A stretch of DNA of 32,000 bases from Hyphomicrobium sp. (lineage in GTDB: Bacteria > Pseudomonadota > Alphaproteobacteria > Rhizobiales > Hyphomicrobiaceae). The notes beneath the pieces were generated by a model. It worked only from the letters and a program-made list of their open reading frames with translations, ran no database searches and had not been told where the DNA came from. The DNA is taken from the NCBI GenBank assembly GCA_035325525.1, contig DAOKZR010000004.1:250807-282806 (forward strand). The letters are read 5' to 3'. Positions 1 through 31,169 of this stretch are shown here, in pieces (the first letter of the stretch is position 1; each line of letters starts with the position of its first letter). Both the position numbers and the translations under genes were made by a program.

Positions 1-578
1 CGAAACATCTCAACGGCACGTTTCGTGTTCTCGAAGCTCTGGATACGGTTGATGGCCTGTTGAACCTCCTCGTCGAAGTCCTGCACACCCAGCGACACGC
101 GATTGATGCCAATGGCGGCAAAGGCGGCGACCTGTTCGTCGCTCAAGGAGCGCGGGTCGATTTCAACGGCGTATTCGGCTTGCGGCGCAATGCCGAACGC
201 CGACCGCAACGCCGCCCCGACGCGCGCGATGTCGTCGGGCGCAAGGGCATTGGGCGAGCCTCCGCCCCAATGCACGTGCGTGACGCGATGGTGCCCGGCG
301 AACTGGCTGACGAGCGCGATCTCGCGCAGCAGCGCCTCGACGTAGGTCCTTACCGGCTCATAGCGGCGTATCGCCTTCGTGTTGCAGCCGCAGTACCAGC
401 AAAGTTCATGGCAAAACGGGATGTGGAGGTAGAGTGACAGCTTCGTGTCGGAGGGCAACGCGCGCAGCCACGTCTCATAGACCTGCGGGCCGATCGCGGG
501 CGAAAAATACGGAGCCGTGGGATAGCTCGTGTAACGGGGTACCGGCGCGGAATAGCGCCTGATAAGGTCGGGAAGCAT
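1..578 (-). CDS. hemN: Oxygen-independent coproporphyrinogen III oxidase (radical SAM), N-terminal part; the gene runs off the left edge
   Basis: Absent from the ORF track because there is no stop in the window. Reverse-strand translation from ATG (578..576) gives MLPDLIRRYSAPVPRYTSYPTAPYFSPAIGPQVYETWL...LSLYLHIPFCHELCWYCGCNTKA...THVHWGGGSPNAL...INRVSLGVQDFD. This shows the HemN N-terminal signature, the CxxxCxxC radical-SAM motif and the GGGSP motif. Confidence 0.9.
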   Translation of the reverse strand, partial: MLPDLIRRYSAPVPRYTSYPTAPYFSPAIGPQVYETWLRALPSDTKLSLYLHIPFCHELCWYCGCNTKAIRRYEPVRTYVEALLREIALVSQFAGHHRVTHVHWGGGSPNALAPDDIARVGAALRSAFGIAPQAEYAVEIDPRSLSDEQVAAFAAIGINRVSLGVQDFDEEVQQAINRIQSFENTKRAVEMF

Positions 579-663
579 GCCGGAGTTTCCTCGCCTTCGT
601 GGCCTGTCGATATGGCCGGTCGATCCTTCAGCCTAGACATGCCCCAAGTGCGGTCCAGTCAGT

Positions 664-677
664 TTGACATTGGTCAA
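664..677. promoter_or_regulatory. FNR/FixK-type anaerobox TTGAC-ATTG-GTCAA upstream of hemN
   Basis: Perfect palindrome TTGACATTGGTCAA matching TTGA-N6-TCAA, centred about 92 nt upstream of the hemN ATG. hemN is a classical FNR/FixK target. Confidence 0.7.
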
Positions 678-1011
678 GCCACCGTGGCCTGGGCCTCACG
701 GCGAATTGTCACTGTCCGGGCGCAAATTCCCCGTCAGGGAGGGGCTCGGACCTGACGCTGACGGCCCGGCGGAGCCGACGGCGCCACCGGGGCGATGCCG
801 TGCAGGCCATCGCCTTGTAATCTCGGCCAAAACAGCCAGCGCCCGACGCCTGCCGTGTTGCACGGGTGGCCGGGCGTACCGTTGAGCGGCAATATCTGCT
901 AGACGAGCCGGCAGACCAGCCAGGTAGACGCCATCCGTCAGCGCCAAGGACGTGTTGCCCCTTGCCCCGCACCACCATCAATCTGATCATCATGGGCGCC
1001 TCCGGCTGCCG

Positions 1012-2499
1012 ATGACATCATGCTCAACCAAGGCGCCACCCCCACCGCAGGCCGCGCTATCGATCCGGCTGGTTGCCGTCTTCTTCTCCACGGCGATGCT
1101 ACTCGTTGTTGCCGCCAGCGCCATTCTCTATACGGCGACCGTTGCTGCGCTCAATCAGGCCGACGACCAAGTCGTCGACAAGCGCGCCGCGGCCATCGCC
1201 GATATTCTCAATGAACCGGCCATCAACGAAGCCCTGCTCGCTCATGAGATCAATGAGGACAACCAGGGACCCCGCCAGATCTTCATTCGCGTGATGACGC
1301 CTGCCGCAGGCGCTGCGCAGGAAACAGAAGGGATGAGTGACTACCTTCCAGCCGGCATCCTGCCAAACCCCGAAAACGCGGCCCTTGGCGCCCCGGTGCG
1401 GGCAACGGTCACGACAAAGAAAGGCCAAACCTTCCGGACCGCGAGCCGGCGCGTGCGTGTCGCAGGTGCTGGCGGCGCCGCATTCGCGATACTGCAGGTG
1501 GCCACCGACACCACGCTCGACGAGAACGCGCTTGCCCTGTTCCGCGGCATCCTGCTGGCGGTCGTCGGCGGCGCCTTTCCTCTGGCCGCCGCGCTGTCGT
1601 GGTACATCGTCAAACGGGAGCTGAAGCCGCTCGCACGCATCACGGCCGCCACGCAGGATATCGACGCCGACACCATCGGCCGGCGCTTGTCCCTCGAGAC
1701 ATTGCCCGACGAGCTTCATCGCCTTGCGCGCCAGTTCAATCTCATGCTGGACCGCCTGGAGGCCTCCTGGGAGGACCTGAAGCACTATGCCGATACCATC
1801 GCGCACGAGATGCGCACGCCCATCAATCGCATGCGCCTCAATAGCGAGATCGCGCTGGCGAAGGCTGAAACCGAAGACGAGCTGCGCGAGGTAGTGCATT
1901 CCAACCTCGCAGAATGCGAGCGTCTCACCCGGCTGCTTAACGGACTGTTGTTCCTGGCTCGCGCCGACAATCATCAGGCGGCTATTTTGCCCGAACGCTT
2001 CAGCCCGGCAAGCCAACTCGCGGTGGTCAAGGAATTCTACGAAGACGACGCCACATCGGCCGGCGTGACGTTGAAATGCGAGGCTCGACCCGAGTGCTGC
2101 GAGATTGTCGCCGACCGCGAGTTGTTCAAACAAGCGCTCGCCAATCTCGTCTCCAACGCCATCCGCCACACGCCCAAGGGCGGCTCGGTCATCCTCTCGT
2201 GCTCATCTACGCTCCACGAGATCCTCGTCCAGGTTGAGGACACAGGCAGCGGCATTGCACCGGAAGTCGGCGCCCGGATTTTCGATCGCTTCTATCGCGG
2301 CGGCGGCGCGGCGACACAAGACAGCCGGGCCGGCCTGGGCCTTGCCATTACAAAAAATATCATGAAATTGCATGGCGGCCGCATCACAATGGACAGCGCG
2401 CCGGGGCGCGGAACGCGTATGACGTTGGCGTTTCCTTTGCGCGGTAATATGCTGCCGGGACCGGCGGCTGTTTCGGGTATCGGCGAGACTGGGACTTGA
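1012..2499 (+). CDS. Two-component sensor histidine kinase, heavy-metal (CusS/CopS)-like subfamily; no cognate response regulator adjacent
   Basis: ORF track 952..2499; I prefer ATG 1012 (MTSCSTK...), which is followed by TM segment LVAVFFSTAMLLVVAASAILY. There is a second TM plus HAMP (LKPLARITAATQDID), H-box ADTIAHEMRTPINRM, X-region LNGLLFLARADN, N box LANLVSNAIRHTP and G boxes EDTGSGI / GLGLAITKNIMKLHGG. Confidence 0.85.
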   Translation: MTSCSTKAPPPPQAALSIRLVAVFFSTAMLLVVAASAILYTATVAALNQADDQVVDKRAAAIADILNEPAINEALLAHEINEDNQGPRQIFIRVMTPAAGAAQETEGMSDYLPAGILPNPENAALGAPVRATVTTKKGQTFRTASRRVRVAGAGGAAFAILQVATDTTLDENALALFRGILLAVVGGAFPLAAALSWYIVKRELKPLARITAATQDIDADTIGRRLSLETLPDELHRLARQFNLMLDRLEASWEDLKHYADTIAHEMRTPINRMRLNSEIALAKAETEDELREVVHSNLAECERLTRLLNGLLFLARADNHQAAILPERFSPASQLAVVKEFYEDDATSAGVTLKCEARPECCEIVADRELFKQALANLVSNAIRHTPKGGSVILSCSSTLHEILVQVEDTGSGIAPEVGARIFDRFYRGGGAATQDSRAGLGLAITKNIMKLHGGRITMDSAPGRGTRMTLAFPLRGNMLPGPAAVSGIGETGT

Positions 2500-13154: not shown

Positions 13155-13536
13155 CTGATTTTCATCTCCCTGGAATTTTCTAGTTCTTTTGCAAACAAAC
13201 CATCGTGATACGGGCCCTCAGGAGGCTATCCATCCTCGGGTTGATCCAAGGATCGTGACGTGCCGGAATGCGTGGCGCCCACAGACGCCGCACCTGAAGG
13301 TCCTATTACCTCAATACCCCCGCACCGACCCGAACATGTATTACCCGGATACCACCAAAGTCGAATTTTTAGGCTTTTGGTCAGATTTTCTCACCACACC
13401 CCTAACAACCCGTTCTTGAACGAGAAATGGCCCCTCCCGCGATGTTCCAGGCAAGCGGCCATGCCGTCCGGCTTGCGCTGCGCTGCACAAACCCCGTAGA
13501 TGCTGCGTACTTCAGTTTGTTTTGGAGCAAAGCGTT

Positions 13537-13860
13537 ATGACCCGATTGATTTCACGGATCCTCGCCGCCGCAATATCGGCGGCTGCGGCAGCCTCGGCGG
13601 TGGCTCCCGCTTCCGCGGGGCCCGCCCGGGGGGGGGCGGTGGCAAAAAGCTTTTCCGCCCCCCCCGCAGTGCTAAAGGTTCATGACCGCCGCTACCATCA
13701 CCGTCAGTACCCGCGCTACGAACGCCACGTCGATGCGCCGTTCACGCACGTGGAGACGGGTCGCCGCGTTGTCGTCGAGGCCCCCTTCGCAACGGTCTAC
13801 GCCGGCCGTCGCGGCCGCTACGTCCGCGCGCCGTTCGTCGATCTGTGGATCCCGCGCTGA
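13537..13860 (+). CDS. Hypothetical small exported protein with three (D/E/R)APF-x-x-V repeats
   Basis: ORF track 13522..13860. ATG 13537 gives signal peptide MTRLISRILAAAISAAAAASAVAPASA. The C-terminal half is His/Arg/Tyr-rich with VDAPFTHV / VEAPFATV / VRAPFVDL. Confidence 0.55.
   Translation: MTRLISRILAAAISAAAAASAVAPASAGPARGGAVAKSFSAPPAVLKVHDRRYHHRQYPRYERHVDAPFTHVETGRRVVVEAPFATVYAGRRGRYVRAPFVDLWIPR
13629..13665. repeat. Inverted homopolymer hairpin GGGGGGGGCGG-N15-CCGCCCCCCCC inside the CDS
   Basis: G9 run at 13628..13636 and C8 run at 13658..13665. The 11-nt arms are perfectly complementary. The spacer contains the palindrome AAAAGCTTTT. Confidence 0.9.
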
Positions 13861-14111: not shown

Positions 14112-14624
14112 ATGTTCAATCGCGTCTCGACGCCAGATCCGCGCGCTGGCGAGTCCGCCCGCGCCAACGGCACTCTCTCCGTCCCATCGACGAAATCCAC
14201 GCCGCCGCCGCCATTCGCGCAGGCGACGTCGCAATCTGGCGCACAGAGCGGACAGGTGACGATGCGTGCGCCCGATGCCCCGACTTCGGTCCTGGGACCG
14301 GACATTACCATCATCGGCCAGCAACTGGTGCTCAAGACCAAGGGCTCGCTGCTGATCGCCGGACAGATCCAGGGCGACGTGCACGGTGAAAGCGTCACGG
14401 TGGGCGAAAGCGGCGCGGTGACGGGAACGATCACCGCGCGCACGATTGCCGTTCAGGGAGAGGTGCGCGGCGCGCTCAAGGGATCGGCTGTCTACCTTCA
14501 TGCGACGTCGCGCGTCGACGGGGACATCGTCAAGCAAACGCTGGCCATCGCGGAAGGCGCGCAGTTCGATGGCAGCGTGCGCCGTGCGCGCGACGTGAGC
14601 GAAGTCACGCCCGACCTCGCGTGA
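14112..14624 (+). CDS. Bactofilin (polymer-forming cytoskeletal protein, DUF583)
   Basis: ORF track, 170 aa. Disordered Pro/Ser-rich N-terminus, then the bactofilin beta-helix pattern SVLGPDITIIGQQLVLKTKGSLLIAGQIQGDVHGESVTVGESGAVTGTITARTIAVQGEVRGALKGSAVYLHATSRVDGDIVKQTLAIAEGAQFDGSV. Confidence 0.9.
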   Translation: MFNRVSTPDPRAGESARANGTLSVPSTKSTPPPPFAQATSQSGAQSGQVTMRAPDAPTSVLGPDITIIGQQLVLKTKGSLLIAGQIQGDVHGESVTVGESGAVTGTITARTIAVQGEVRGALKGSAVYLHATSRVDGDIVKQTLAIAEGAQFDGSVRRARDVSEVTPDLA

Positions 14625-14663
14625 GCTAAACTTTTCAGGGCCGATTTATTGATCAATATCGGG

Positions 14664-14691
14664 ATGCCGGGTCACAGCCCGGCATTTTTTT
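14664..14691 (+). terminator. Rho-independent terminator after the bactofilin gene
   Basis: atgccggg-tcacag-cccggcat followed by TTTTTTT. Confidence 0.8.
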
Positions 14692-14703
14692 GTCCTAAGT
14701 CAA
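14690..14703. promoter_or_regulatory. FNR/Dnr/NnrR-like box TTGTC-CTAA-GTCAA upstream of the CCP/qNOR-like operon
   Basis: One mismatch to TTGA-N6-TCAA, and it shares the GTCAA half-site with the hemN box. TATTATAAA (14721..14729) lies about where the -10 of a class II (-41.5) promoter would be. The operon ATG is at 14801. Confidence 0.4.
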
Positions 14704-14800
14704 ACACGCTTCCTCGCAAGTATTATAAAGGTTCCCTCAGGGTTAGATTAACTGACAAGCTCAGTCCGCAATAAGAAACTGAGATTGGAGGGAGGAAACT

Positions 14801-16036
14801 ATGATTGCAGGCCGATTGCGCGTTGCGCAAAGCCGGAAGACGGCTCGTTGGCTGGGGCGGGTTGGCCCGATGGTATTCATCGCGGTCCTCGCACTGGTGT
14901 CCTTGAAGTTCACGCAGCAGCAGACGGTTGCGGCCGACCAACAATCCACGTTGAGCCCGCTCGAACAGCTCGGCGCCGAATTGTTCGTCGACGTGAACCT
15001 CTCACTTAATCGAAAGCAAGCGTGCGCGACCTGCCACGACCCCGACCATGCGTTTGCTGATCCGCGCACCTCGAAAGCCGGGCGCGCTGTTTCAACAGGC
15101 GACGACGGACAATCGATTGGCGACCGGAATGCGCCGACGCTGTCGTACGCCCACCTCACACCGCCTTTGACCAAGCGGCCCGACGGGACCCTGATGGGGG
15201 GATTTTTCTGGGATGGCCGCGCGGATACTCTCGAGGACCAGGCCAAGGGGCCCTTCTTGAACCCTGTCGAGATGGCAATGCCTGATGGTGCGTCCGTAGG
15301 AAAACGCATCTTGGAAAACGAAAAATACGTCGCCCGTTTCAAGGAGCTGTTCGGTCCAGACGTCGTGCTAGATCCCGAGCAGACGTTCGATGCGGCAGCC
15401 AAGGCTTTGGCCGCATACGAGCGCACGAGCGTGTTCTCGCCCTTCGATTCAAAGTACGATCGCTGGTTGCGCGGAGAGGCGACGCTCACCCCGCAGGAGG
15501 AATTCGGGCGGATCGTGTTCGCAACGTGGAACTGCGAGAACTGCCATAGGCCGAGGCGGCTGGGCGATCCTGGCACGGAGCTTTTTACCAACTTCGAGTA
15601 CCATAATATCGGGGTCCCGGCGAATGCACGTGTGCGCACGCTGAACGGCAAGGGCGAACGTTTTGTAGACGCAGGATTGCGCGATGGTGCGGCTGCGTCG
15701 GACACGACGCAGGCCGGCAAGTTCAAGGTTCCCACGCTGCGCAACATCGCCGTTACCGGTCCCTATATGCACAACGGCGTGTTCGAAAAGCTGAGAACTG
15801 CAATTGAGTTCTACAACAAATACACCAGCAGCCGCTCGACTTTGCAGATCAATCCTGAAACCGGAGCCGCCTGGGGCGAGCCGGAGGTCGCAGACAACAT
15901 CTCCAACGCCCAGCTCAAGACTGCGCTCTCGATGAACAACATGAGAGTTGTTGCGCTCGAAGCGTTCCTCAAAACGTTGACCGATAAGCGGTACGAGCAT
16001 CTGCTCACCGCCGAAAGTGGTGGAGAGCAGCAATGA
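14801..16036 (+). CDS. Di-haem cytochrome c peroxidase / MauG family protein, N-terminally membrane-anchored
   Basis: ORF track, 411 aa. GGAGGGAGGA SD. TM/signal anchor MVFIAVLALVSLKF. Two haem sites, CATCH and CENCH. CCP blocks: DRNAPTLSYA, FFWDGRADTLEDQAKGPFLNPVEM, FKVPTLRNIAVTGPYMHNG. Confidence 0.9.
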   Translation: MIAGRLRVAQSRKTARWLGRVGPMVFIAVLALVSLKFTQQQTVAADQQSTLSPLEQLGAELFVDVNLSLNRKQACATCHDPDHAFADPRTSKAGRAVSTGDDGQSIGDRNAPTLSYAHLTPPLTKRPDGTLMGGFFWDGRADTLEDQAKGPFLNPVEMAMPDGASVGKRILENEKYVARFKELFGPDVVLDPEQTFDAAAKALAAYERTSVFSPFDSKYDRWLRGEATLTPQEEFGRIVFATWNCENCHRPRRLGDPGTELFTNFEYHNIGVPANARVRTLNGKGERFVDAGLRDGAAASDTTQAGKFKVPTLRNIAVTGPYMHNGVFEKLRTAIEFYNKYTSSRSTLQINPETGAAWGEPEVADNISNAQLKTALSMNNMRVVALEAFLKTLTDKRYEHLLTAESGGEQQ

Positions 16037-18375
16037 GCGCCGTCGGGAGATTCTGGAACCGTTTTGTGATGAGCCGCCGGAACTGGTGGCTGCCCCTCGC
16101 GATCGTGCTCGGTATCGGCATCGGAAGCATGCTGTTCATGGGCACGCGTACCTACCAGGACGCGCCGCCAATTCCGAGCTTCGTCGATGAGCAAGGCGGG
16201 ACGGTGATCTCAGCCGACGCGGTGACCCGCGGACAGGTCGTCTTCCTTAAGAAGGGGCTGATGAACTACGGCAGCATGTTCGGGGACGGCGCCGGCCGCG
16301 GCCCCGACTTCACCGCCTACGCGCTGCATCAGGTGGCTCGCGCGATGCGAGACCACTATGTGTCCTCCGGTGGCGCGGACGCCGACGCGGCGCTCGCTGC
16401 CACGCAACGCGAGATCAAACGCAACCGCTATGATGAACAGGCCAACACGGTAACGATCAGCGCGGCGCAGGCCTACGGCGCGCGCGAACTCGAGCGGCGT
16501 GTGGCTGCGATGTTCCGTGGCGGGGACAGCGAGGCGTTCCAGCCGGCCGGCTATATCACCGACGAAGCCGAACTGCGCGACCTCTCGGCATTCTTCTTCT
16601 GGGGCGCCTGGGTGTGCGGCGTCGAGCGGCCCGGCAAGAGCTATAGCTACACGCACAACTGGCCCTACGACGAGATGGCGGGCAATCGGCCCAGCCCGCA
16701 GGTCATGCTGTGGAGCGTCCTCGCGTTGCTCGGATTGGTCGGCTCGCTCGGCACGGTGCTCTTCCTGTACGGCCGCTATTCGTCGATCGCGGGATGGCAA
16801 CCGGCATCTCGGCGTGCCGATGCACCGCCGGACGGCAGCGCGGCGGCCACCGTCATTCAAGTCGATACGATGCGGCCTACCATGCTGCAGCATGCCACCT
16901 ACCGGTACTTTGCTGCGGCGGCAGTTCTGTTCGTACTGCAGATCGTGGCGGGCGTGCTGACGGTTCACGACTTTCTGGGAATAACGCGGGTGGCGGGAGT
17001 TGATCTTGCGGAAATCCTGCCCCTCCCGGTCGTACGCGGCTGGCACCTGCAGCTGGCGTTGCTATGGATCAGCGCATGCTGGGTGGCTGCATCGATCTTT
17101 GCTATCTCGACCGCCGCTCCCCAGACCCCGGCCGGACAGCTGCGCCTGGTGGATGCCCTATTCTGGCTGTTCATCGTCACCGTCGTCGGCGGATTGGCCG
17201 GTATCGCACTCGGGGCGCATGGCCTGCTTGGCGACTGGTGGTACCTGTTGGGCGGCCAGGGCTGGGAGTTCGTCGAGCAGGGCAAGCTGTGGCAGGCATT
17301 GTTGTTCGCCGTGTTCGCGCTGTGGTGCGTGATCCTGGCGCGCGCGGTACGGCCGATCTGGCGGTCCGGCGACGCATGGATCCTGCCCAAATGGCTCCTC
17401 TATTGCGTCATGTGCGTGCTGGTGATGTTCGTCTGCGGCTTCGTCGCCACGCCTGAAACCAACTTCGTCGTGGCCGATTTCTGGCGTTGGGCCGTGATCC
17501 ACATGTGGGTCGAGGCGTTCTTCGAGGTCTTCACGACGGCCGTGCTTGCCTATTTCATGGTCCTCATGGGACTGGTGAGCCACGCTGCCGCCTCGCGCAT
17601 CGTCTATCTGGCCACGCTTCTGTTCCTCGGCTCGGGCCTGCTGGGTATCTCGCATAACTTCTATTGGAATGCGAAGCCCGTCGTGACGCTGGCTGTCGGC
17701 AGCGTGTTTTCCACCCTCCAAGTGGTGCCGCTGATCCTGCTCACCTTGGAAGCCTGGCAGTTCCGCAACGCACCCGAACGCGTGTCCGGCTCGTCCTCCG
17801 GCGCTGGCTTCGGCCAGTCAGAGGCGTTCCTGTTCCTGCTTGGCGTGAACTTCTGGAACTTCTTCGGCGCCGGCTTGTTCGGCTTCATGATCAATCTCCC
17901 GATTGTCAACTACTACGAACACGGCACGTATCTCACCGTGAACCACGGCCACGCGGCGTTGATGGGCGTCTATGGCAACCTGGCGATTGCGATGATGCTG
18001 TTCTGTGCGCGCTGTCTGATCGTACCGGAACGCTGGAACAGGGCGCTGCTGCGCCGTGTGTTCTGGTCGCTCAACGTCGGCCTGATTTTGATGGTGGCGC
18101 TCGATCTGCTACCCGTTGGCATCGCGCAACTGCTCGATGTGCTCGAAAACGGCTTGTGGCACGCACGTTCGCAAGTCTTCGTACAAGGAGACTTGTTCCA
18201 AACGCTCACCTGGGCGCGGATCGTTGGCGGCGCACTGTTCGTGCTGGGCGGCGTGCTTCCCCTGGCGTGGTTCATGGTGACGCGCGCAAGCTCGCTCAAG
18301 GCGCCCCTGCCTGAGCCGGCGGGCGCGGCCGAGCCAGGTTTGGCCAGACCCATGCCGGAGGTTGGCCGCGCCTGA
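16033..18375 (+). CDS. qNOR-like haem-copper oxidase (nitric oxide reductase large-subunit family) with non-canonical, NO-dismutase-type active-site residues
   Basis: ORF track, 780 aa. The ATG overlaps the CCP stop (ATGA). N-terminal TM plus a haem-less periplasmic domain (no CxxCH), then a polytopic core with RGWHLQLALLWI, ADFWRWAVIHMWVEAFFEVF, GISHNFYWNAKP, GSVFSTLQVVPL, LTVNHGHAALMGVYGN. Confidence 0.9.
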   Translation: MSAVGRFWNRFVMSRRNWWLPLAIVLGIGIGSMLFMGTRTYQDAPPIPSFVDEQGGTVISADAVTRGQVVFLKKGLMNYGSMFGDGAGRGPDFTAYALHQVARAMRDHYVSSGGADADAALAATQREIKRNRYDEQANTVTISAAQAYGARELERRVAAMFRGGDSEAFQPAGYITDEAELRDLSAFFFWGAWVCGVERPGKSYSYTHNWPYDEMAGNRPSPQVMLWSVLALLGLVGSLGTVLFLYGRYSSIAGWQPASRRADAPPDGSAAATVIQVDTMRPTMLQHATYRYFAAAAVLFVLQIVAGVLTVHDFLGITRVAGVDLAEILPLPVVRGWHLQLALLWISACWVAASIFAISTAAPQTPAGQLRLVDALFWLFIVTVVGGLAGIALGAHGLLGDWWYLLGGQGWEFVEQGKLWQALLFAVFALWCVILARAVRPIWRSGDAWILPKWLLYCVMCVLVMFVCGFVATPETNFVVADFWRWAVIHMWVEAFFEVFTTAVLAYFMVLMGLVSHAAASRIVYLATLLFLGSGLLGISHNFYWNAKPVVTLAVGSVFSTLQVVPLILLTLEAWQFRNAPERVSGSSSGAGFGQSEAFLFLLGVNFWNFFGAGLFGFMINLPIVNYYEHGTYLTVNHGHAALMGVYGNLAIAMMLFCARCLIVPERWNRALLRRVFWSLNVGLILMVALDLLPVGIAQLLDVLENGLWHARSQVFVQGDLFQTLTWARIVGGALFVLGGVLPLAWFMVTRASSLKAPLPEPAGAAEPGLARPMPEVGRA

Positions 18376-18393
18376 GGCGGCTCACACGGGAAG

Positions 18394-18430
18394 AAAAGAG
18401 CCGTTTGCGCCACGCGCAAACGGCTCTTTT
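18394..18430 (+). terminator. Strong bidirectional-type terminator: 17-bp perfect stem aaaagagccgtttgcgc-cac-gcgcaaacggctctttt
   Basis: Read directly. A-run on the 5' side, U-run on the 3' side, 19 nt after the stop at 18375. The hairpin sequence is related to the one after thiC (6371..6406). Confidence 0.85.
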
Positions 18431-18510
18431 CATTTGTTCTGTCATTCATTTTTCTGTCGCGCTTCCTGGTGGAGAACCGGCTTTCCACTTTTCCGGGGCG
18501 CGCGCTCATT
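18431..18510 (+). repeat. Dispersed intergenic repeat, locus 3
   Basis: catttgttctgtc...ctgtcgcgcttcctggtggagaaccggctttccacttttccgg matches the core at loci 1, 2 and 4. Confidence 0.65.
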
Positions 18511-26848: not shown

Positions 26849-28645
26849 TCATAATGAGGCGAGTTTGACGTCCGCGTGGAACTGATTACTGACCGTCGTC
26901 GGGTTTACATAACCCGCACGGATGCAGAAATCGCCGAAGTGCTCGCCATCCTTGCGGTCCTTGGCATAGGCTTTGAAGATGGGGTCCAGAAGCGCCAGGA
27001 TCCGCTCCTCGTTCACGTCTTGCGCGTAGAGCTTCGACAGGCGCGAACCGTCGAACGCCGCGCCCAGGTACATGTTGTAGAGACCTGGATTGCGGCCCGC
27101 AAAGCCGATCTCGGCGAGATAGGGCCGTGCGCATCCGTTAGGGCAGCCCGTCATGCGTATGACGATATCCTCTTGGCGCAAGCCGGCCTTGTCGAGGCTG
27201 TCTTCCAACTTGGTGATGAGGCTCGGCAGGTAGCGCTCGCTTTCGGCCAGGGCGAGGCCGCAGGTTGGCAGCGCCACGCACGCCATGGCATTGGCCCGCA
27301 GCCGCGAGGAAACCTCGAGCGAAACGCCATTGGCTTTCAGAATGCCTTCGATCTTCGCCTTCGACTTGGCGGCGACCTTCGCCATCGTCACGTTCTGATT
27401 GGCCGTGGCGATGAACTCGCAAATGCCCAGATCCGCGATCTCGCGCAGCGCCTTCTTGAGCGCGCGCCCTTCGACGTCCTTGATGCGTCCGTTCTCGATG
27501 AACAAGGTAAGGTTCCAGTTCTTGTCCTCGCCCTGCCGCCATCCAAGCACGTCGCTCGTGCCCTCGAACTTGAAGGGGCGAGGTTCACCGAGCTTGAAGC
27601 CGCAGCGATTCTCGACCTCGGTACGGAAGTTCTCCAACCCCTTGTCTTCGATAGTGTATTTCAGGCGCGCGCGGGCGCGGTTCTCGCGATTGCCCCAGTC
27701 ACGCTGCGTGGTCATCACGCATTCGGCAACCTTTATGACCTGATCGGGCGTGCAAAACGCCATGAGGTCACCGGTGCGCGGGAAGGTATTGGTGTCACCG
27801 TGCGTCATGCCCATGCCTCCGCCCACCGTCACGTTCCAGCCGGCGATCTCGCCCTTCTCGATGATGGCGATGAAGCCGAGGTCATGGGCAAAAACGTCCA
27901 CGTCGTTGCTCGGCGGGACCGCAAACACGATCTTGAACTTGCGCGGCAGGTAATGGACTCCGTAGAAGGGCTCCTCGTTCTTCTTGGCCGACCGCGAAGC
28001 CTCCTCGACCTTCTCCCCATCGAGCCAGATCTCGTGATAGGCGCCGGTCTTGGGCAGAAGGTGTGCGCTGACGGCAAGGCCCAGCTCGTAGGCTTGCTTG
28101 TTCGCCTTTGAAAGATAGGGATTGGACACCGTCATCACGTTGCGGTTGACGTCGCCGCACGCCGCACGGGTGTCGAGCGCGGCCTTGTTGATGGCCTGCA
28201 TCGTGCGCTTCAGGTTCGACTTAATGACGCCATGATACTGGAACGTCTCGCGCGTCGTCAGGCGCATCGAGTTGTTCGCGTAGGTGGTGGCGATGCCGTC
28301 GAGCGCGATCCATTGCTTGGCCGTGAGCACCCCGCCGGGAATGCGCAAGCGCAACATGAAGATGTAGGCCTTCTCGAGCTTCTTTTTTGCGCGTTCGGCG
28401 CGAACGTCGCGATCATCCTGCAGGTAGGATCCGTGGAACTTGAGGATCTGGGTATCCTCCTCCACGATGCTTCCGGTGGATTGAACCTTGATCTCTTCGG
28501 CCAGCGTGCCGCGAAGCTGGCGGCTGGCTTCCTTGACGAACTCGTTCCTTGAGCGCTTTTCGGTCATGTCTTGACGTGTCCTGAGGTCGTTTGCCCCTTC
28601 GCTCGGAAGGGTCGCGGGATGGGCGGAACAAGTTTGTCCGCTCAT
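26849..28645 (-). CDS. cysI: Assimilatory sulfite reductase (NADPH) haemoprotein beta-component
   Basis: ORF track, 598 aa. LRGTLAEE...ILKFHGSYLQDDRD, MLRLRIPGG, TTRETFQYHG, siroheme/4Fe-4S Cys motifs ACGDVNRN, CVALPTCGLA and TGCPNGCARP. ATG 28645 has a GGGGAGA SD. ATG 28567 is an alternative start. Confidence 0.93.
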   Translation of the reverse strand: MSGQTCSAHPATLPSEGANDLRTRQDMTEKRSRNEFVKEASRQLRGTLAEEIKVQSTGSIVEEDTQILKFHGSYLQDDRDVRAERAKKKLEKAYIFMLRLRIPGGVLTAKQWIALDGIATTYANNSMRLTTRETFQYHGVIKSNLKRTMQAINKAALDTRAACGDVNRNVMTVSNPYLSKANKQAYELGLAVSAHLLPKTGAYHEIWLDGEKVEEASRSAKKNEEPFYGVHYLPRKFKIVFAVPPSNDVDVFAHDLGFIAIIEKGEIAGWNVTVGGGMGMTHGDTNTFPRTGDLMAFCTPDQVIKVAECVMTTQRDWGNRENRARARLKYTIEDKGLENFRTEVENRCGFKLGEPRPFKFEGTSDVLGWRQGEDKNWNLTLFIENGRIKDVEGRALKKALREIADLGICEFIATANQNVTMAKVAAKSKAKIEGILKANGVSLEVSSRLRANAMACVALPTCGLALAESERYLPSLITKLEDSLDKAGLRQEDIVIRMTGCPNGCARPYLAEIGFAGRNPGLYNMYLGAAFDGSRLSKLYAQDVNEERILALLDPIFKAYAKDRKDGEHFGDFCIRAGYVNPTTVSNQFHADVKLASL

Positions 28646-28678
28646 CCAGGTCTCCCCCAGCGGGGGACGTGATGGCCT

Positions 28679-30466
28679 TTAATAGACGTCGCGCTGATAG
28701 CGGCCGGCCTTGGCGAGTTCTTTCAGCTTGGCTTTGCCGGCCTCTTCATCGCCCTGCGCATTCTCGGCAAGGATCTTGACGAGCGCTGCGTCCACGTCCT
28801 TGGCCATGCCTTTCTCGTCGCCGCACACGTAGATGTGCGCCCCGTCCCCGATCCAGCGCTGCAGGTCCGCGCGGCGCTCCCACAAGCGATGCTGCACGTA
28901 GATCTTCTCAGGCTGGTCGCGCGAGAAGGCGACGTCGATGTTGGACAAGGCGCCCGATGCCAGATGGTCCTGCCATTCGAGCTGATAGAGGAAGTCGTTG
29001 GTGAAGTTGCGCTCACCAAAGAAGAGCCAGCTCTTGCCGGTGGCGCCCGTCTCCGCGCGCTCTTCCACGAAGCCGCGGTAGGGTGCAACGCCGGTACCCG
29101 CGCCGATCATGATGATGGGCATACCGCCGTCCGCGGGGAGCCGGAAGTGCCGGTTCGGCTTGACGTAGATCCGCGCGCTGGCGCCGGGCTTGCGCCGGTC
29201 GGCAAGGTAGGTCGAGGCAACGCCCTTGCGCATCTTGCCATGGCTTTGCCAGCGCACCGTGCCAACCGTGAGATGCGCTTCGCCCGGATGCGCCTTGATG
29301 CTTGAAGCAACCGAATAGAGTCTGCCCGGCAGCGGACGCAGCAGCGACAGAAGCTGCTCGGCATTCAAAGTTTCCCGATGGGTCTCGAACAGATCGATGA
29401 GTTGCCGGTCGGCGGCAAAGCGTGCCAGGGCATCGCCCTCCAGCAACGCCTTGACGTCGGCGCGGCCCGTCAGCCTGGCGTAATTTTCAACCAGCGGCTT
29501 CGATAGCGTGGTGACGTCGTAGGACTTCTGAATTTTTGCCGACAGCGCCCCATCCGATGACAGACCCGTCGCCTCCAGAAGCTGATGGACGAGGACAGGA
29601 TCGTTCTCAGGCAGAATGCCGATGGCATCGCCCGGCGCGTAAGTGAAGGCCGGATCTTCGGTCGCGAACTCGACGTGCCAGGTCTCACGCGTTGAGCCAG
29701 TGCCGTTGAGATTGATGAGAGTCGAGATCTCCGCCTCCAACGGGCTCTCGGCAGTGAAGGCCGGTTCGGTGTCATCATCCTCGCCGGCCGCGGCGGCGCC
29801 TTTGAAATCGACGTGGACCACGGTCGCCCCGCCGCCGGTGTCAGCGGGCGCCAACTTGGAGAGCGCCTTATCCGTCCAATCCGCGGCCTGCTTGGCGAAA
29901 TCGAGGTCGCAATCGACGCGGTCGGCGGCGCGGATGCCGCCCAGCGCCTCCAGCCGGGCATCGATGCGCTTGCCGGCTTCGCAGAATTGCGCATACGCGG
30001 TATCGCCCAGCGCCAGAACGGCGAAGCGAACGCCGTCGAGCCGCGGCGCGTTATCGCCCATGAGTCCCTGATAGAAATCGGCGGCGCGGCTGGGCGGATC
30101 GCCCTCGCCCCAGGTTGCAGCATAAACGACGATGTTCTTGGCCTTGCCAAGCAGCGCCATGTCGGCGTCCGCCATGTCGTAGATCTTGGCCTCGAAGCCG
30201 TGCTTGGCGGCGGCCTTCTTGGCCTTCATCGCCAACCCCTCGGCGTTGCCGCTCTCGCTCGCATAGAGGATCGTGAGCGGCGTACGCGGCTTGGGCGGAG
30301 CCACAGGTGCAACGGCGCCGGCGCCTTGCGCGGCCTCGAAGCCCGCAAAGAAGCCCGACAGCCAACTGCGCTGCAGGGGTGTCGATTTGGCGACGACCTT
30401 ATTCAAGGTGTCGATGTCTTCAGCCGTAAACGGCGCGTTCTTCGGCAACAATGGAATAGTCGTCAC
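28679..30466 (-). CDS. cysJ: Assimilatory sulfite reductase (NADPH) flavoprotein alpha-component
   Basis: ORF track 28679..30490. I start at GTG 30466 (GGAGAG SD), giving MTTIPLLPKNAPFTAEDIDTL. Flavodoxin block ILYASESGNAEGLA, FAD/NADPH blocks RLYSVASS, GAGTGVAPYRGF, and the C-terminal RYQRDVY. Confidence 0.93.
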   Translation of the reverse strand: MTTIPLLPKNAPFTAEDIDTLNKVVAKSTPLQRSWLSGFFAGFEAAQGAGAVAPVAPPKPRTPLTILYASESGNAEGLAMKAKKAAAKHGFEAKIYDMADADMALLGKAKNIVVYAATWGEGDPPSRAADFYQGLMGDNAPRLDGVRFAVLALGDTAYAQFCEAGKRIDARLEALGGIRAADRVDCDLDFAKQAADWTDKALSKLAPADTGGGATVVHVDFKGAAAAGEDDDTEPAFTAESPLEAEISTLINLNGTGSTRETWHVEFATEDPAFTYAPGDAIGILPENDPVLVHQLLEATGLSSDGALSAKIQKSYDVTTLSKPLVENYARLTGRADVKALLEGDALARFAADRQLIDLFETHRETLNAEQLLSLLRPLPGRLYSVASSIKAHPGEAHLTVGTVRWQSHGKMRKGVASTYLADRRKPGASARIYVKPNRHFRLPADGGMPIIMIGAGTGVAPYRGFVEERAETGATGKSWLFFGERNFTNDFLYQLEWQDHLASGALSNIDVAFSRDQPEKIYVQHRLWERRADLQRWIGDGAHIYVCGDEKGMAKDVDAALVKILAENAQGDEEAGKAKLKELAKAGRYQRDVY

Positions 30467-31169
30467 GGATCTCTCCAATGGGCAGCGCACACGCCATCAC
30501 GCGAAAACCGCCCCCTCGTTCTTGCGCGCCTCGACGCACAGCTGTCCGGGCAGCAGAGAATTTGCCGCCCCGTCAAATGGCTCAAGGCGCAACACCCAGT
30601 CGCTGACAGGGAATTATTTTTCAAATATCACGAACATTGGACCCTATCAATAGTATGTAAATCCAATTATAGGCACTCGTAGGTACAATATTTCTTCTTA
30701 TTGCCGCTTTCGGAGACGGCAGCGCCCTTTCGGGTCCCGACCGTACCGGCGACGCCAGCCGAATACCTTAGCCGGCGCAGCCTCCTCTATCGCGCAAGGC
30801 TGGCGCCTGACGGCCCTTCCGGGACATCGTCGCCGGGTCATTGCAACGTTATCGGATCATCCGATGTCTCATTGGTCGCGCCGGCTTTGCGTGAAGCCTT
30901 CCGCCCGTGATCCGCGCAAAGTGTAATGATACAAAATTACATAGAGATCGCACATACTTACACACGTAGACGTGAAGCGCCTTGAGTTGCCCGGCGGGTC
31001 CCTTTCGTGATCTAAAGATTTCGAGACGGATGGATCTTGACTTCTCGAGATCGATCCGCAGAGTGGGCCGGCACACGGAGAATGTGTCTGCCCCAGGGTC
31101 GATCCCCGACCAGCTTGAGTCTGGGTTTGGGTCTGAGACGGCAGCTTTTTTGAAATTGGAGGAAACCAC

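Follow-up and report, generated by a model that had tools for sequence, protein, structure and literature searches.

A mauG-nod operon in Hyphomicrobium and the conserved pairing of putative nitric oxide dismutases with di-haem peroxidase-family genes

In a stretch of 32,000 nucleotides from Hyphomicrobium sp. (assembly GCA_035325525.1, contig DAOKZR010000004.1, positions 250,807 to 282,806), hereafter the window, two adjacent open reading frames (ORFs) encode a MauG-type di-haem enzyme (ORF A) and a homologue of the quinol-dependent nitric oxide reductases (qNOR) that carries the signature of putative nitric oxide (NO) dismutases (NOD; ORF B). The stop codon of ORF A (TGA, 16034..16036) and the start codon of ORF B (ATG, 16033..16035) overlap as ATGA, a junction that exceeds chance because the identical four-nucleotide overlap recurs in 20 species genomes of the NOD subclade described below. 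Two hairpins, one closing the upstream bactofilin gene and the other 3' of ORF B, flank the pair, which is therefore a self-contained unit: a mauG-nod operon of two translationally coupled genes (Table 1). An earlier description of the window, made from the letters alone and referred to here as the sequence-only reading, had proposed such a two-gene unit with an ATGA overlap, a strong terminator after the oxidase, and a Shine-Dalgarno sequence and promoter shared by both genes; we verified the ORFs, the codon positions, the terminator (an 18-pair hairpin) and the Shine-Dalgarno element GGAGGGAGGA, whose GGAGG core lies 5 nucleotides 5' of the ORF A start codon, but not the promoter. As shown below, a whole subclade of NODs inherited the coupling of nod with a di-haem peroxidase-family gene from its common ancestor.

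ORF B aligns end to end with the Geobacillus qNOR (3AYF) and combines a NorC-like periplasmic domain without haem with a haem-copper oxidase subunit I fold. The FeB ligand His560 of 3AYF is replaced by Asn, as seen where GISHNFYW aligns with GIGHHYYY, and the active-site Glu is replaced by Gln; at the quinol site, Glu332 and Asp746 of 3AYF both correspond to Gly in ORF B, while His328 is retained. A scan of ORF B for CxxCH was negative, so the protein has no haem c motif. This signature, His-Asn together with Gln, is present in 120 of the 120 best database homologues of ORF B and in all 79 full-length NOD loci from genomes. These substitutions, those at the quinol site included, constitute the definition of putative NO dismutases given by Ettwig et al., who describe these proteins as 'unable of accepting external electrons' (PMC3413370). 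We consider ORF B a putative NOD, for which dismutation of NO to N2 and O2 is predicted. With neither a quinol site nor haem c, ORF B has no evident electron input, and the absence of the quinol-site Glu is as the sequence-only reading had suggested.

Among solved structures, ORF A is best matched by Paracoccus denitrificans MauG (3L4M; E = 7e-136), with 57-61% identity over the full length, and reaches only ~1e-24 against bacterial cytochrome c peroxidases (CCPs). In a multiple alignment all MauG hallmarks are kept, namely His35 and His205, the proximal ligands belonging to the two c-type haem motifs, Asn66, Trp93, Gln103, Pro107, Glu113, Met114, Trp199, Thr275, Pro277 and, at the aligned position, an equivalent of Tyr294, together with the Ca2+-site residues. 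Since Tyr294 is kept within FYNKY, His/Tyr ligation is expected in ORF A, and its six-coordinate haem is probably His/Tyr rather than His/Met. The sequence-only reading had identified both haem sites and the PYMHNG block correctly and had taken the latter for a Met-ligand block; the same Met occurs in MauG, where the ligand is not this Met but Tyr294. Assignment of ORF A to the His/Met bacterial CCPs was accordingly rejected, both on similarity (~1e-24 versus ~1e-136 to MauG) and on the retention of Tyr294. The NCBIfam equivalog model TIGR03791 ('TTQ_mauG') gives ORF A 92.9 bits against a cut-off of 443.85. This failure is uninformative because a biochemically defined enzyme, the MauG of P. 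denitrificans, reaches just 96.8 bits, likewise below the cut-off, and CCPs of the iodate reductase (Idr) type outscore MauG with 167-223 bits; MauG of the Paracoccus type is not covered by the model.

The N-terminus of ORF A consists of a basic region of ~20 residues and a hydrophobic core of ~15 residues, followed by V-A-A/D. This architecture is conserved in the nod-linked MauG clade, with A-A-A/D in nearly all relatives and V-A-A/D in three. The product is probably a secreted soluble enzyme with a cleavable Sec signal and a canonical signal-peptidase site. The membrane anchor proposed in the sequence-only reading, which would have resembled those of NorC and CcoP, is not supported, as the hydrophobic stretch is only ~15 residues long and the conserved AXA/D site after it favours cleavage.

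Table 1. Features of the mauG-nod operon and its immediate flanks, in window positions
Feature	Position	Strand	Description
Bactofilin ORF	14112..14624		Upstream of the mauG-nod pair
Terminator-like hairpin	14661..14688	+	12-bp stem followed by a T-run; closes the bactofilin gene
Shine-Dalgarno sequence of the MauG-type gene, GGAGGGAGGA	14787..14796	+	Strong; read from the sequence
ORF A, MauG-type di-haem enzyme	14801..16036	+	411-aa precursor; Pfam CCP_MauG, 1e-45; 3L4M is the best structure match
Probable Sec signal peptide	14801..14935	+	Basic n-region, h-region and predicted cleavage site; predicted from the sequence
h-region, MVFIAVLALVSL	14870..14905	+	
Predicted cleavage after V-A-A	14927..14935	+	
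Haem motif 1, CATCH	15023..15037	+	Aligns with MauG Cys31/Cys34/His35, the five-coordinate, oxidant-reactive haem
TWNCENCH	15524..15547	+	Equivalent of Trp199 (surface hole-hopping residue), then haem motif 2
Haem motif 2, CENCH	15533..15547	+	Aligns with MauG Cys201/Cys204/His205
PYMHNG	15761..15778	+	Met present
FYNKY	15809..15823	+	Equivalent of Tyr294, which in MauG is the distal ligand to the six-coordinate haem
ATGA stop/start overlap	16033..16036	+	Translational coupling; also in 20 species genomes of the subclade
ORF B, NOD-type qNOR homologue	16033..18375	+	780 aa; Pfam PF22085 and PF00115; 3AYF, E = 1e-145
SHNFYW	17650..17667	+	FeB His-His to His-Asn (Asn542), relative to 3AYF His559/His560
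STLQVVP	17710..17730	+	Gln563 replaces the active-site Glu581 of qNOR; aligns with SALEVIP
Intrinsic-terminator-like hairpin	18393..18431	+	18 pairs; ends the operon 3' of ORF B

To place the pair in a wider context, NOD genes were surveyed in one genome per species, which returned 80 NOD loci, 79 of them full-length; all 80 were searched with the window MauG-type protein, their upstream ORFs were read and a neighbour-joining tree was built (loci other than the window are given by L numbers). The partner-linked NOD loci form one clade of Betaproteobacteria (Burkholderiaceae, Rhodocyclaceae/Sulfuritalea, Limnobacter, Polaromonas and Lautropia), within which the three Hyphomicrobium NODs (window, L006 and L009) are nested. 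A di-haem CCP_MauG-family gene lies directly upstream of nod in 25 of the 27 subclade genomes with enough upstream sequence, and one further partner-linked locus, L033, falls just outside the clade. None of the loci in the other NOD clades of the scan (Planctomycetota, Scalindua, Bacteroidota, Gammaproteobacteria, Obscuribacterales and Acidobacteria) has an adjacent partner; two NODs outside the linked clade that were inspected in detail are monocistronic, and at L056, in a non-linked clade, CCP-family genes lie 4 kb from nod. The sequence-only reading had suggested comparing relatives of ORF B with canonical qNOR genes, and the comparison sets the 25 of 27 against four canonical (HH/E) qNOR loci on plasmids, none of which has a CCP/MauG-family gene within 4 kb. 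The adjacency is conserved but confined to one NOD subclade. The sequence-only reading had named a lack of such conservation in related genomes as its refutation, and this outcome did not occur. The result corrects the published view, from the neighbourhood study of Elbon et al., the only one found, that nod has no consistent neighbourhood. A literature search found no paper on the pairing, which had been put forward as undescribed, nor on the operon, its clade-wide conservation, the kinship with idr cassettes or the replacement by MauG described below; both gene families are already known.

The partner-linked NODs themselves show little that sets them apart: just four residues specific to them differ (Asn9, Gly114, Ala361 and Ala698), none of these is aromatic or Cys, and no docking signature was recognised. 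Since the linked NODs have no special residues and the NODs of other clades stand alone, the partner is accessory to NOD chemistry and not part of its core. In addition, no genuine CCP-NOD fusion was found among 1.84 billion representative proteins. Two candidates were discarded: P0457 (741 aa) is a read-through, full of frameshifts, across a Lautropia-like CCP1-CCP2-nod locus, and P0374 is a haloarchaeal qNOR with an acidic extension.

In the betaproteobacterial members the operon has the order small monohaem cytochrome c, CCP1, CCP2 and nod, and most junctions are four-nucleotide overlaps. CCP1 and CCP2 are closer to bacterial CCPs and MbnH than to MauG and share 25-31% identity with the window protein. 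CCP2, which adjoins nod, keeps the distal Gln and Glu, both of which are missing from CCP1, and the peroxidatic Gln103/Glu113 pocket is always kept by the gene next to nod, whether CCP2 or MauG-type. The nearest relatives of CCP1 and CCP2 that are not linked to nod belong to clusters in which two CCP genes precede a Rieske subunit and an AioA-like molybdoenzyme (the idr-like loci L096-L098), the architecture that defines the iodate reductase clusters idrABP1P2 according to Reyes-Umana et al. (PMC8692401). CCP1 is 43-60% identical to the first Idr CCP and CCP2 is 57-66% identical to the second, compared with ~40% between CCP1 and CCP2, and the small cytochrome c of the nod cassette shares 45-51% identity with that of L096. 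Judged by these identities and by gene order, the nod cassette (cytochrome c, IdrP2-like, IdrP1-like) is orthologous, in the same order, to the idr-like cassette of L096-L098. The IdrP1/IdrP2 cassette is present in the betaproteobacterial relatives of the window, which itself holds a single MauG-type gene.

Other genes occur around the betaproteobacterial operons. At four loci (L003 1662-3149, L025 1400-3304, L026 1733-3313 and L037) the gene immediately 5' of cassette-nod encodes an aldehyde dehydrogenase, and Ycf48-like BNR propellers (L016, L021) and a pair of Aminotran_3 and HAD hydrolase genes (L003, L033) are recurrent nearby. One Rhodocyclaceae metagenome-assembled genome (CAYYXS01) has two NOD paralogues, L022 and L039, one with a cytochrome c-CCP1-CCP2 cassette and the other without.

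The Hyphomicrobium NODs are nested in the cassette clade while their partner is one MauG-type gene: Hyphomicrobium exchanged the CCP cassette for its own MauG, which shares the fold but is only distantly paralogous, and re-created the ATGA junction. The four-nucleotide overlap is thereby kept with non-orthologous partners, the MauG-type protein and CCP2. Apart from the window protein, nod-linked MauG-type copies are found in L006, L009 and metagenome proteins (66-73% identity to the window protein), stand-alone MauG-type genes in Hyphomicrobiaceae (L086; L088, L100 and L101; 61-66%), and the MauGs of canonical mauFBEDA(CJ)G clusters in L104-L111 and Paracoccus (53-61%). On long contigs, the stand-alone gene of L086 is isolated and those of L088, L100 and L101 are each followed by a class I cytochrome c gene; in terms of gene context, these relatives sit like ordinary periplasmic peroxidases.

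The 32-kb window contains no mau gene (~14 kb on either side of the pair), and none occurs within 10 kb on either side in L102, of the L009 lineage, whereas in L006, L099 and L103 mauG-nod heads a genuine and complete mauF-mauB-mauE-mauD-mauA cluster (L006 8673-12480; L099 8900-11236). The cluster of the L006 lineage encodes a MauF-like membrane protein and a MauA with a Tat signal and the motif CDYWRHCS...C.C.GG, and is preceded in this lineage by genes for MauM/N-like ferredoxins and a two-component system. Canonical clusters place mauG 3' of mauA and not ahead of mauF. The window, L006 and L009/L102 have different genes flanking the pair, and no neighbour gene of the window was found in L006 or L009. 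A gene for a 330-aa Cys-rich cytoplasmic protein, which has no Pfam or PDB match, precedes mauG-nod in two of the three Hyphomicrobium contexts (L006 3607-4599, L009 3709-4698, L099 3836-4828) and is absent from the window. Propeller genes of the Me-amine-dh_H family were also observed near the Sulfuritalea nod operons (L025-L028 and L037; ~175-1370, minus strand) and, together with MauE, beside the idr-like cluster of L096 (11636-13146); with 23-26% identity to the MauB of L006, they belong to another subfamily.

On a metagenome contig (L121 9860-15844; JGI Ga0160421_1000015), a canonical norC-norB-norQ-norD operon likewise has a MauG-type gene immediately 5' of it; this is a second, independent MauG-type adjacency to an NO-handling haem-copper enzyme. 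The encoded protein has 395 aa and is 51-53% identical to that of the window; Tyr294, Gln103 and Glu113 are retained, with Trp93 replaced by His and Trp199 by Thr. A DUF2249/TusA gene precedes the MauG-type gene.

Upstream of the pair in the window, no match to a sigma-70 promoter was found. The 112-nt gap 5' of the operon contains an FNR/CRP-type core, TTGTCCTAAGTCAA, at 14690..14703, ~30 bp upstream of a TATAAA-like box (14722-14731), a spacing that would suit a class II promoter. We rejected this core as a promoter element, given that it is not more frequent than by chance (9 found versus 6.3 expected) and that it is absent upstream of the orthologous operons in relatives. The upstream regions of the window, L006 and L009 show no conservation, the GGAGGG element being the sole conserved feature upstream of the L006 and L009 operons, and the base composition across the operon shows no anomaly. 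Elsewhere in the window, a gene for a NIR_SIR haemoprotein resembling NirA/sulfite reductase adjoins one for a CysJ-like flavodoxin/FAD/NAD reductase (26849-30490, minus strand), an assimilatory reductase pair apparently unrelated to the operon. A small secreted Arg/His-rich ORF of 112 aa without a family match (13522-13860), also called as a gene in the JGI annotation (107 aa), lies upstream of the bactofilin gene.

Regarding function, we tentatively favour, with a probability of about 0.4, the reading in which the partner consumes or uses an oxidant released by NOD. According to this reading, NOD would release O2 or a peroxide-level oxygen species from NO at the periplasmic face, and the di-haem partner would act on it as an oxidant sink or user beside the source, not as the electron donor of NOD. 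In Betaproteobacteria the peroxidases would reduce the released species with electrons from the small cytochrome c, and in Hyphomicrobium the species would serve MauG as the oxidant for reaching the bis-Fe(IV) state. The MauG-type product is predicted to contain one five-coordinate haem reactive with H2O2 or O2 and one His/Tyr haem, with Trp93 and Trp199 available for hole hopping; MauG needs O2 or H2O2, as established by the Davidson laboratory. A role downstream of NOD is favoured because the gene adjacent to nod has an intact H2O2/O2-reactive pocket, its Idr relatives are regarded as oxidant-removing, the linked NODs are unspecialised and NODs elsewhere are solo. The conserved adjacency, the overlap kept with either type of partner and the place of the pair at the head of mauFBEDA in L006, L099 and L103 also speak for this reading. 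The Idr peroxidases have been proposed to remove H2O2 or another oxidant made by iodate reductase (PMC8692401, PMC10149662). Of the two options offered by the sequence-only reading, the removal of peroxide or reactive by-products is nearer than electron delivery to the comparative evidence that we favour.

Several points weigh against this interpretation. L013 and L023 are subclade members that have lost the di-haem partner from the locus, the window operon lacks a gene for a cytochrome c donor, and tight translational coupling of all cassette genes would be more usual for the subunits of one complex than for a detoxification enzyme. The substrate of bacterial CCPs is H2O2 and not O2, and MauG is a poor cytochrome c peroxidase. 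Furthermore, the literature search found no biochemical demonstration of NO dismutation for any NOD member, and the function of IdrP1P2 has been described as 'still unclear' (PMC10149662).

Electron delivery is the main rival, although we regard it as rather unlikely. It holds that the di-haem protein, or a chain from cytochrome c through CCP1 to CCP2, docks on the periplasmic domain of NOD and supplies electrons in place of quinol, which would mean a new subunit composition for NOR/NOD enzymes or a reductive activation system. The absence of Glu332 and Asp746 from the quinol site and of haem c from NOD would leave room for such a donor, the cassette genes are linked by four-nucleotide overlaps, as is often the case for complex subunits, and CCP1, without the catalytic Gln and Glu, resembles a pure electron carrier. 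In activity gels the Idr proteins, the homologous peroxidases among them, run together with IdrA as a complex (PMC10149662), Reyes-Umana et al. also raise 'electron shuttling' (PMC8692401), and genes for ferredoxin and cytochrome b561 have been reported close to gamma-type nod by Elbon et al. A simple electron wire, however, would have no use for the full catalytic H2O2/O2 pocket that the nod-adjacent gene keeps, nor does such a wire agree with linked NODs devoid of specialised residues, with NODs of most clades lacking any partner, with an ancestral partner that is the peroxidase cassette of iodate reductase, or with the absence of CCP-NOD fusions, one candidate for which is a frameshifted gene call. 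In addition, MauG haems have low potentials, and we know of no record of MauG acting as an electron carrier.

A historical accident is less probable still and, in our judgement, unlikely. In this scenario the gene is a MauG that matures methylamine dehydrogenase (MADH), and nod landed behind it in a Hyphomicrobium mau cluster, where the two are co-transcribed without interplay. The order mauG-nod-mauF-mauB-mauE-mauD-mauA in L006, L099 and L103, with mauM/N-like genes nearby, would be as expected, the window protein keeps every residue for synthesis of tryptophan tryptophylquinone (TTQ), including Trp199, and the absence of mau from the source genome refers to the 32-kb window only. Set against this, the ATGA pair occurs in at least three contexts, of which two, the window and L102/L009, have no mau gene over the distances given above, the MauG-type gene occupies exactly the position of the non-orthologous CCP2 in the parent clade, and a mauG upstream of mauF departs from the canonical order. 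Least supported, and in our view very improbable, is a maturase role, in which the di-haem enzyme would oxidise Trp or Tyr of the haem-less periplasmic domain of NOD to a redox cofactor or cross-link in the way MauG acts on preMADH and MbnH on MbnP: enzymes of this superfamily are usually encoded beside their protein substrates, Trp93 and Trp199 for hole hopping and the Tyr294 ligand are all present in the window protein, and many Trp residues in the NorC-like domain of NOD are invariant, but the linked clade has no aromatic or Cys residue of its own, neither Trp199 nor Tyr294 occurs in the ancestral partner CCP2, and unlinked NOD clades keep the same conserved residues with no such enzyme nearby.

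We give little credence to a more far-reaching reading, in which NOD is a periplasm-facing oxygen source for haem enzymes needing O2 or H2O2. Under it, in denitrifying Hyphomicrobium NO-derived oxygen would drive MauG to bis-Fe(IV) through mauG-nod(-mauFBEDA), and the oxygen-dependent cofactor TTQ, or another MauG product, could form under anoxia. In Betaproteobacteria, again under this reading, cytochrome c-CCP1-CCP2-NOD would convert 2 NO to N2 and water with respiratory electrons entering through the peroxidases, making the operon an N2O-free NO reductase built from a dismutase and a peroxidase module. NO dismutase commonly serves as a marker of 'dark oxygen' and of N2O-free denitrification, and a conserved, co-translated partner with O2/H2O2-requiring chemistry is indirect genomic evidence that NODs release oxygen species; NOD activity could be reported by the bis-Fe(IV) signature that MauG gives in the near infrared, or by turnover of the CCP pair. 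A single cytochrome c-CCP-CCP cassette serving both iodate reductase and NOD suggests that respiratory enzymes in danger of making reactive oxygen draw on a portable 'oxidant-handling' module.

Among known systems, the MauG of MADH clusters (3L4M) is the closest to ORF A, sharing all hallmark and Ca2+-site residues, and the L006 gene adjoins mauFBEDA. Canonical mauG is placed after mauJ, whereas the window gene is joined to nod by ATGA, and in its Hyphomicrobium group the relatives examined are orphans, unlike the MauG of mau clusters. The bacterial di-haem CCPs, such as P. aeruginosa CcpA and Geobacter MacA, share with the window protein the Pfam family, the Ca2+ site, a Trp between the haems and the distal Gln/Glu, and they are the nearest solved structures for betaproteobacterial CCP1 and CCP2; the window protein differs from them in its far weaker match than to MauG and in having the Tyr ligand and Trp199 of MauG. 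In the cytochrome c-dependent NO reductase NorCB and the cbb3 oxidase CcoNOP, a haem-copper catalytic subunit is encoded with periplasmic c-type cytochromes, as here, and CcoP is likewise di-haem. NorC, CcoO and CcoP are, however, membrane-anchored six-coordinate carriers of the cytochrome c fold, while the window protein has the CCP/MauG fold, a predicted open catalytic haem and a probably cleaved signal.

The iodate reductase clusters IdrABP1P2 of Pseudomonas sp. SCT, Denitromonas sp. IR-12 and Azoarcus sp. DN11 offer a parallel in architecture, as in both these and the betaproteobacterial operons a terminal enzyme for a strongly oxidising oxyspecies (of N or I) is encoded immediately behind two di-haem CCP paralogues. 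The CCP pair is orthologous and has the same order (43-66% identity overall), the small cytochrome c is common to L096, and in each Idr-type pair one paralogue lacks the Gln/Glu distal pocket while the other keeps Gln, and also Glu when nod-linked. The role of the Idr peroxidases is debated in like terms, as detoxification or electron shuttle. The partnered enzyme differs, being a soluble Mo/Rieske reductase in Idr and a membrane haem-copper NOD here, and the window has one MauG-type gene in place of the Idr-type pair and its cytochrome c gene. Finally, the putative NODs of Ca. Methylomirabilis oxyfera and strain HdN1 are alike to ORF B in the FeB His to Asn and Glu to Gln substitutions and in the degenerate quinol site; their oxygen is thought to feed monooxygenases and a conserved neighbour is unreported, whereas the subclade of the window has an obligatory-looking di-haem partner.

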